From the NCBI RefSeq assembly GCF_003334765.1, contig NZ_QOWT01000002.1: a stretch of 64,000 bases of DNA; one strand, given 5' to 3'. Source of the DNA: Escherichia coli. Its GTDB lineage: Bacteria; Pseudomonadota; Gammaproteobacteria; Enterobacterales; Enterobacteriaceae. Numbering within the stretch: position 1 is the first letter of the stretch; every line of letters begins with the position of its first letter. A program made the translations under genes and the position numbers. Shown in pieces: positions 56,806 to 57,209 of this stretch. Below the pieces are notes generated by a model. It saw only the letters and a program-made list of their open reading frames with translations. It did not search any database and was not told the DNA's origin.

Positions 56806-57209
56806 CTCACCTTCCCCCATTAAATACCAACGACACTCTCTAGTGTTTAAATATAATAATGGCATGATTATTATAATTGAATAGGATTATAATAAATGTT
56901 CTGTACAACATTTCCTACATAAGTAGGAATTACGAACATGGAGGCCCTTCCGGGTAACTCCATGAGGGCTTTAATATATTATATTGAAGATGCCACCGTT
57001 TAGTTGAATATTAGGTATATTCTCTTTTTTGAAATTTATCGGTGGCTGCCGTTAGTATTCGCTGTCCCCATTGCAAGCTCCTGGTGGTAACCACTGAATC
57101 CTCCATACTTGAACTGACTTTTATCCTCCGACTTTCATCCTGTTCTGACTCCACCTTTTGTTTTCTGCTCTACACTATCTACAGACCAATCATAAAGGCA
57201 CATACGATC

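Follow-up and report, generated by a model that had tools for sequence, protein, structure and literature searches.

The 64-kb stretch of Escherichia coli DNA analyzed here (the window) carries the divergently transcribed genes yegR and yegS, and our subject is the spacer between them, its origin, and a palindrome that it contains. yegR (56488 to 56805, minus strand) encodes a predicted lipoprotein of 105 amino acids (aa), and yegS (57210 to 58109, plus strand) is a core gene for a lipid kinase. The spacer extends exactly from one gene to the other (56806 to 57209), as a sequence-only reading of this stretch had stated. To the left of yegR lie yegQ/trhP (54796 to 56157, plus strand) and the small RNA gene cyaR (56240 to 56325, plus strand; Rfam RF00112, 100.7 bits, E value of 5e-20), which is annotated in K-12 and whose terminator stem overlaps a phage attachment core. 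On the other side, yegS is followed by gatR (58191 to 58970, minus strand). The segment from 56150 to 57260 is 100% identical to E. coli strain 14EC001 and is matched in 5,424 of 5,426 complete E. coli genomes; the spacer itself is single copy in most genomes, with a median of 1 place per genome.

The yegR block at the P2 attachment site

The spacer combines DNA of foreign and of ancestral origin. We compared the neighborhood of yegS across 57 species-level genomes. The distance from the end of cyaR to the yegS start codon is ~86 bp, with no yegR in between, in Escherichia whittamii, two other Escherichia lineages, Klebsiella, Enterobacter, Atlantibacter, Citrobacter koseri, and others. The yegR block was present only in E. 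coli and in one close divergent lineage (L005). In E. coli it is an insertion of 768 bp (56329 to 57096), and the insertion point is exactly the P2 attachment (att) core within the cyaR 3′ end. Approximately 290 of the 404 bp of the spacer are foreign by this comparison, and the last 86 bp (57124 to 57209, plus strand) are the ancestral cyaR-yegS spacer, now the yegS leader, which aligns to E. whittamii, other Escherichia, Citrobacter, and Salmonella. The proposal that this AT-rich DNA was horizontally acquired therefore stands for yegR and most of the spacer, which are absent from sister species and sit at a P2 att site, and fails for the final 86 bp.

Both edges of the insertion carry att core sequence. 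The left boundary is an intact 27-nt P2-type core, AATCTCCCTTACACGGGCTTATTTTTT (56302 to 56328, plus strand), at which the K-12 cryptic prophage PR-X also begins. In another strain, this core bounds a complete Peduovirus prophage (L060/L081) at each of its two junctions. In that prophage, the int gene adjoins the core copy that abuts the yegR block. The right boundary is a decayed second core (57097 to 57123, plus strand) that retains 17 of 27 matches; only two other matches of at least 17/27 to the core occur in 128 kb of both strands. The decayed core ends 86 nt before the yegS ATG, which is where insertion-free species have the real core, and K-12 and L005 have an 18/27 match at the same position.

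In addition, remnants of the arms of a P2 phage attachment site (attP) were found just inside each edge. On the left, an ogr-side arm remnant (56341 to 56381) was detected by local alignment to the ends of K-12 PR-X and of phage vB_EcoM-720R8, with a score of 23 against a null of 9.8 ± 1.8 (0 of 1000 to 2000 shuffles, p < 0.001). On the right, an int-side arm remnant (57037 to 57096) emerged from an anchored global alignment with prophage L060, in which the 60 nt preceding its core served as the reference; the score was 5 against a null of -10.3 ± 3.8 (0 of 5000 shuffles). A MAFFT alignment had hinted that the right insertion edge might be a decayed duplicate of the cyaR body; local alignment was negative for this, and the anchored comparison gave p = 0.13 versus 0/5000 for the attP arm, and we rejected it. 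Because the second att core, the int-side arm, and the ogr-side arm mark the block, the yegR block is, to judge from its sequence, the scar of an old P2-family prophage.

Cryptic P2 remnants such as K-12 PR-X (ogrK-yegZ) offer a useful comparison. The yegR block shares with them the same att core in cyaR (ryeE), flanking core repeats, and both attP arms, but it differs in having no recognizable phage gene and in the state of its second core, which matches at 17 to 18 of 27 positions versus 22 of 27 for PR-X. No phage-like open reading frame (ORF) other than yegR was found in the block, nor any residual int, ogr, or D. Matches of the block in phage databases were only to prophage records that include host flank, and short matches with E values of 3 to 10 were noise. 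A single copy of the P2 late-promoter motif TGT-N12-ACA occurs at 56902; with a rough chance estimate of 0.1 to 0.2 and no location at -55 from a good -10 element, it was not retained as a phage promoter.

In K-12, three att core copies stand in a row (L001 3304-3330), matching at 27/27 in cyaR, 22/27 after yegZ, and 18/27 before the yegS leader. Therefore, PR-X and the yegR block in K-12 are a tandem array of scars, of which PR-X integrated later. The K-12 record labels only PR-X as prophage and ends this feature before yegR, so the annotation stops short of the older scar. Knowledge of this layout is of use for annotation and also helps studies of yegS regulation.

The history that we propose begins with an old P2-family prophage, which would have used the att core at the cyaR 3′ end for integration and would then have been almost entirely deleted, leaving the 768-bp scar. 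From left to right, this scar would begin with the ogr-side attP arm; next would come yegR, an AT-rich cargo gene, with ~230 bp of AT-rich upstream DNA, and then the int-side attP arm. Beyond it would lie the decayed second core and the original 86-bp yegS leader. The locus is in this way a clear small example of a layered core intergenic region, in which an ancestral leader, a decayed phage att site, and a foreign AT-rich promoter lie side by side.

Base composition, promoters, and protein binding

Most of the spacer also stands apart from its surroundings in base composition. The window as a whole has a GC content of 51.5%, compared to 38.1% for the spacer and 32.9% for its part from 56806 to 57030. 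yegR has a GC content of 36.8% and a third-codon-position GC content (GC3) of 25.5%, whereas GC3 in the neighboring genes is 46 to 65%. These values bear out the earlier description of the spacer and yegR as AT-rich relative to their flanks. The foreign AT-rich promoter region (56806 to 57036, ~33% GC) contains the palindrome and is absent from yegR-less species.

A consensus scan identified, on the plus strand, two overlapping sigma-70-like promoters directed toward yegS (56830 to 56874). The first is ACGACA-16-TATAAT (10/12), and the second, TTTAAA-17-TATTAT at 56846 to 56874, corresponds to the promoter that Shimada et al. in 2014 put forward for yegS (PMC3946193). The same authors propose TAAACA-18-TATATT for yegRZ. 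This predicted yegR promoter lies at 56973 to 57002 on the minus strand, has that sequence in K-12, and has a -35 element of TAAACG in this window, where it scores 8/12 and falls below the scan threshold. Its use would give a yegR start near 56966, and the yegR mRNA would then carry the palindrome at its 5′ end. There is also a perfect minus-strand TATAAT at 56875 to 56870.

Published data place both RNA polymerase and H-NS at this spacer. Genomic SELEX (systematic evolution of ligands by exponential enrichment) with the RpoD holoenzyme gave a peak in the yegR<>yegS spacer, which is marked together with an H-NS site (PMC3946193); these are in vitro results, and they agree with the earlier suggestion that the DNA is bound by H-NS. 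SMRT-Cappable-seq recovered a yegR-yegZ transcript (PMC6131387 supplement), and no transcription start entries for yegR or yegS were found in the published start-site supplements that we searched. In K-12, yegS is Rcs inducible (PMC2731931, PMC3599342, PMC5105897); inspection by eye gave no convincing match to an RcsB box for yegS.

Because promoter hexamers face both directions, A/T repeats are present, and both RNA polymerase and H-NS bind in vitro, the AT-rich part is most likely a divergent promoter region under H-NS silencing. It resembles H-NS-silenced AT-rich islands in its ~33% GC content within a 51.5% background, its absence from sister taxa, its promoter hexamers on both strands, and the published binding of RNA polymerase and H-NS at this spacer. 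It differs from them in being very small (<0.8 kb) and in that H-NS binding here is known from in vitro SELEX.

Structure of the palindrome and its chance level

The palindrome, CATGGAG-GCCCTTCCGGGTAA-CTCCATG, occupies 56937 to 56964 and is 28 nt long, one base more than the 27 nt (56938 to 56964) first reported. Its existence and its nested inner stem were confirmed by an inverted-repeat search and by folding. The search gave two 7-nt arms that are 100% complementary with 14 nt between them, and the predicted fold has a 7-bp outer stem, a 4-bp inner stem (GCCC/GGGU), and a TTCC loop. The minimum free energy of the RNA is -14.7 kcal/mol on the plus strand (z score of -3.8) and -14.1 kcal/mol on the minus strand (z score of -2.9). 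The element forms a patch of 60.7% GC between flanks of 27 to 30% GC.

Is such a structure unusual? The window contains 158 perfect inverted repeats of at least 7 bp with loops of 3 to 20 nt, or ~1.0 per 404 bp, and 28-mers that fold at -14.7 kcal/mol or better make up ~30 separate loci per strand (0.16% of positions). Because repeats of this kind occur about once per 404 bp and because ~30 loci per strand are as stable, the stem alone is unremarkable. The palindrome is only weakly beyond chance, and what stands out is a GC patch in AT-rich flanks. Over the whole spacer, inverted repeats are enriched, with 10 overlapping matches versus 0.63 in shuffled sequence (0 of 500 shuffles reached 10), and these are mostly pure A/T.

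Allelic variation of the palindrome

We surveyed 13 E. coli alleles from across the identity range and made two exact-word counts over the 5,426 complete genomes. The exact 28-mer is present in 573 of them, and strains with the perfect allele include E. coli B, O157, and 14EC001. The commonest allele, found in 2,577 genomes, is the K-12 type CATTGAG...TTCA...CTCCATG, which has a mismatch in the middle of the stem; other alleles have 1 to 3 mismatches. The dyad is broken in ~90% of genomes. A 30-mer at the palindrome occurs at 1 place per genome. All 7 outer pairs are kept on the plus strand in 3 of the 13 sampled alleles and, if G-U pairs are allowed, on the minus strand in 6 of the 13. Four transversions among the alleles disrupt the stem on both strands. 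The covariation score was no higher than in shuffled alignments (353 of 500 shuffles reached it), 7 of the 11 pairs depart only via unpaired cells, and the count on the minus strand was likewise not above shuffles.

This variability is a local property. Nucleotide diversity (pi) at 56931 to 56990 is 0.17, the highest of the locus, compared to 0.028 for yegR, 0.030 for the yegR-proximal spacer, 0.015 for yegS, and 0.0115 for the yegS leader, the lowest among the segments measured. In the divergent E. coli-like lineage L005, no alignable counterpart of the palindrome was found. The first reading of this DNA had implied that the palindrome is significant and had named its absence or variation in close relatives, with unchanged expression of both genes, as what would speak against it. 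On the sequence side, this is what we find: the palindrome is intact in a minority of genomes, mismatched in K-12, devoid of covariation signal, and missing from L005.

A 9-nt indel (TTTTGAATAG-like) lies nearby at 56979/56980 and is inserted in 9 of the 13 sampled alleles. It splits both the spacer of the published predicted yegR promoter and an A/T hairpin, CTTTAATATA-T-TATATTGAAG (56969 to 56989), that adjoins the palindrome region. The TATAT repeats on both sides of the indel suggest that it may have arisen by slippage.

Taken together, these data lead us to a single account in which the spacer originated as a prophage scar and the palindrome is incidental, without selection or a dedicated function. 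We consider this account probable, though well short of certain. Directly observed here are the insertion and its boundaries, the homology to the attP arms, the polymorphism, and the base composition, on which this account draws. The palindrome would be a GC patch in fast-evolving DNA, whose perfect 7-bp stem would have come about by chance in the allele of this strain. On this account it is not maintained by selection, and we infer that it most likely lacks a dedicated function. At most, the intact form would add a stable hairpin to a transcript that crosses it, either at the extreme 5′ end of the yegR mRNA, should the published promoter prediction hold, or within a long yegS leader.

Several points weigh against this account. 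The allele sample comprises 13 sequences and two word counts. One of the outer pairs shows a double change from G-C to A-U, and three of the four stem transitions remain G-U paired on the minus strand. The inner sequence GCCCTTCCGGG is nearly invariant across E. coli alleles, and on the plus strand every allele folds at -11 to -16 kcal/mol through an alternative GCCC/GGGC pairing, followed by UUUAAUAU. A strain-specific effect of the hairpin on yegR or yegS expression may also exist. The G-U-compatible transitions, the nearly invariant inner sequence, and the persistent plus-strand folding would fit a weak 5′ hairpin on the yegR mRNA or a weak plus-strand attenuator, and a G-run opposite a C-run would also produce them simply through its composition.

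Comparison of the hairpin with known element classes

The nested, GC-rich stem-loop (7 + 4 bp, approximately -15 kcal/mol) and the presence of some U residues downstream on either strand give the palindrome a likeness to intrinsic terminators. It differs from them in having no contiguous U-tract and a loop too large for the standard pattern, and in lying between diverging genes. The tails are AGGGCUUUAAUAU on the plus strand and UUCGUAAUU on the minus strand. A terminator scan of 56200 to 57400 returned only the cyaR terminator, with no U-tract adjoining the palindrome. Term-seq in K-12 under three conditions shows no 3′ end between cyaR (2167199) and gatD (2171800) (PMC7815308 supplement), a negative that is weak for the present allele, since K-12 carries the mismatched form and the region may be silenced. 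We thus agree with the earlier statement that the palindrome is not a canonical terminator of either gene, both of which point away from it.

A weaker form of this idea is that the GC patch acts as a plus-strand terminator or attenuator of low efficiency for transcripts that start from the strong foreign promoter-like sites at 56830 to 56874, insulating yegS or defining a small RNA of ~100 nt. ACGACA-16-TATAAT (10/12) and TTTAAA-17-TATTAT do face yegS, the stable plus-strand folding is common to all E. coli alleles, which switch between the outer stem and a GCCC(UU)/(G)GGGC pairing, and the fold is followed by UUUAAUAUAU, as read directly from the sequence. An invariant hairpin at 56912 to 56929 lies just upstream. 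Set against these are a tail of mixed A and U without a U-tract, the negative terminator scan, the lack of a Term-seq 3′ end from cyaR to gatD in K-12 (PMC7815308), the absence of covariation and of an Rfam family match, and the fact that plus-strand stability is largely a composition effect, with a G-run facing C/U and many G-U pairs. In L005, the nearest T-run is 17 nt beyond a different hairpin. We regard such an attenuator as quite unlikely.

In a related view, the GC patch would be a naturally variable RNA switch, in which the alleles of different E. coli lineages favor either the outer stem or the GCCC/GGGC pairing beside a U/A-rich tail and so tune how much transcription from the foreign promoter reads into yegS, or the stability of the yegR mRNA. 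If this were true, the extreme polymorphism would reflect diversifying tuning and not neutral decay. We give this version very little weight.

For the minus strand, the corresponding proposal is that the palindrome forms a 5′-terminal stem-loop of the yegR(-yegZ) mRNA, 1 to 3 nt from the 5′ end, and protects the transcript from 5′-end-dependent decay as the ompA hairpin does. If the predicted yegR promoter is used, the likeness to ompA-type stabilizing hairpins would extend to a start within ~3 nt of the 5′ end, with the hairpin mapping to approximately +2 to +30 of the predicted transcript. That promoter is predicted under the RpoD holoenzyme SELEX peak (PMC3946193), the minus-strand hairpin is stable at -14.1 kcal/mol, and a yegR-yegZ transcript is known from SMRT-Cappable-seq (PMC6131387). 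The allele data also lean this way in part, because 6 of 13 alleles retain the 7 outer pairs on the minus strand when G-U is counted and three of four stem transitions are compatible with pairing there. Nevertheless, the yegR start is a prediction, resting here on a promoter with TAAACG as its -35 element and a subthreshold score of 8/12, and the 9-nt indel destroys the promoter spacing in 9 of 13 alleles. Also, in contrast to an ompA-type hairpin, the palindrome is broken in most strains: the K-12-type allele of 2,577 genomes has an A-G mismatch in the middle of the minus-strand stem and a folding energy of only -8.7 kcal/mol. Covariation is not above shuffles, and the one study found of a yegR knockout, which was done in chemostats, saw no phenotype (PMC3708739). 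We therefore think this role unlikely, though it is the alternative to which we give the most credit.

At the level of DNA, CATGGAG-N14-CTCCATG could serve as an operator through which a dimeric DNA-binding protein controls yegR, yegS, or both. This allele has a perfect dyad between divergent promoter-like elements, and the Rcs-inducible yegS of K-12 needs a regulator site upstream (PMC2731931, PMC3599342, PMC5105897). However, no other bases of the locus vary as much as those of the half-sites, and ~90% of genomes have a broken dyad. It would also be unusual for an operator to have a 14-bp GC-rich spacer containing a nested dyad. Other yegS-bearing species lack the region, so that one would look for a conserved yegS regulator site in the ancestral 86 bp; moreover, no RcsB-box match was seen by eye. 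We find an operator at this position hardly credible, the least so of the explanations considered.

There is, in addition, a better operator candidate close by. The inverted repeat TTCCTAC-ATAA-GTAGGAA (56912 to 56929) has all 7 pairs identical in 14 of 14 sequences, and in L005 TTCCTAC-N4-GTAGGAA is kept despite changes in 3 of the 4 loop bases (ATAA to GTTT) and surroundings that are only ~73% identical. This repeat is, from its conservation, a better candidate than the reported palindrome for a protein-binding site or an RNA element.

Other element classes gave no match. An Rfam search of 54000 to 59500 at an E value of 1 or less found only CyaR, a partial match of REP (repetitive extragenic palindromic) type, and a chance match elsewhere, with none at the palindrome. 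With a median of 1 place per genome, the palindrome is not a multicopy element of the REP/BIME (bacterial interspersed mosaic element) type. Small ORFs that cover it (21 aa on the plus strand, 30 aa on the minus strand) were dismissed, as they have an in-frame stop in K-12 and M19 and most alleles are without the plus-strand start codon; no PHROG matches were found for them.

The palindrome itself is of little importance. A more general point is that a striking hairpin in one genome can be a minority allele without any sign of selection.

YegR and cargo at the cyaR-yegS junction

The signal peptide of YegR ends in MSGC. By precomputed annotation, the protein belongs to family PF27694 (YegR), and it also falls in phrog_21109, a family whose function is not known; a scan of YegR against the local Pfam library gave no match. 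YegR homologues of 46 to 83% identity are found in unrelated loci, one of them between insertion sequence (IS) elements. We considered whether these loci share an upstream region and ruled this out, as homology begins only ~10 nt before the ATG. Because the homologue loci share coding sequence only, the AT-rich upstream DNA and the palindrome are specific to the E. coli locus.

Other enterobacteria carry different genes at the same junction. In Escherichia albertii (L009 518-3914), cdtB and two flanking lipoprotein-type ORFs lie between two att cores at cyaR-yegS. Salmonella diarizonae (L023 1050-4000) has an SseK-type arginine glycosyltransferase, an effector of the type III secretion system (T3SS), together with a SicP-like chaperone, and Enterobacter cloacae (L047 1986-3922) has an Ssp4-family type VI secretion system (T6SS) effector with a membrane protein. 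The cyaR-yegS junction is thus a hot spot shared across genera, at which cargo has been left behind at the P2 att site. E. coli has yegR on this landing pad, E. albertii has cdt, Salmonella an SseK-type effector, and Enterobacter a T6SS effector.

One genome requires a comment with respect to the distribution of yegR. The L003 contig, from a metagenome-assembled genome (MAG) designated 'Citrobacter sp.', carries yegR and a yegS that is 99% identical to the E. coli gene, and a second contig of the same MAG carries a Citrobacter-type yegS (90%). The L003 contig is probably E. coli contamination of the MAG bin.

Further repeats and AT-rich DNA in the window

A perfect 11-bp inverted repeat, AGCACGATGCC-N11-GGCATCGTGCT, lies at 56397 to 56429, with the ogr-side attP arm remnant on one side and the stop codon of yegR on the other; no U-tract comes after it on either strand. 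Between yegS and gatR there is a REP-type palindrome (58143 to 58178) with a partial match to Rfam naRNA4 (36 bits, below the gathering score), and a REP hairpin similar to it is located at ~22985. Two identical 28-nt GC-rich hairpins (TAAGGCCCCTTCCTCGGGAGGGGCTTTC, -17.2 kcal/mol) are found 328 bp apart at 42553 to 42580 and 42881 to 42908. Finally, the 404-nt windows with the highest AT content in the entire 64 kb (29 to 30% GC) begin at ~100 to 320, and this region (~100 to 720) at the start of the window may be another foreign island.

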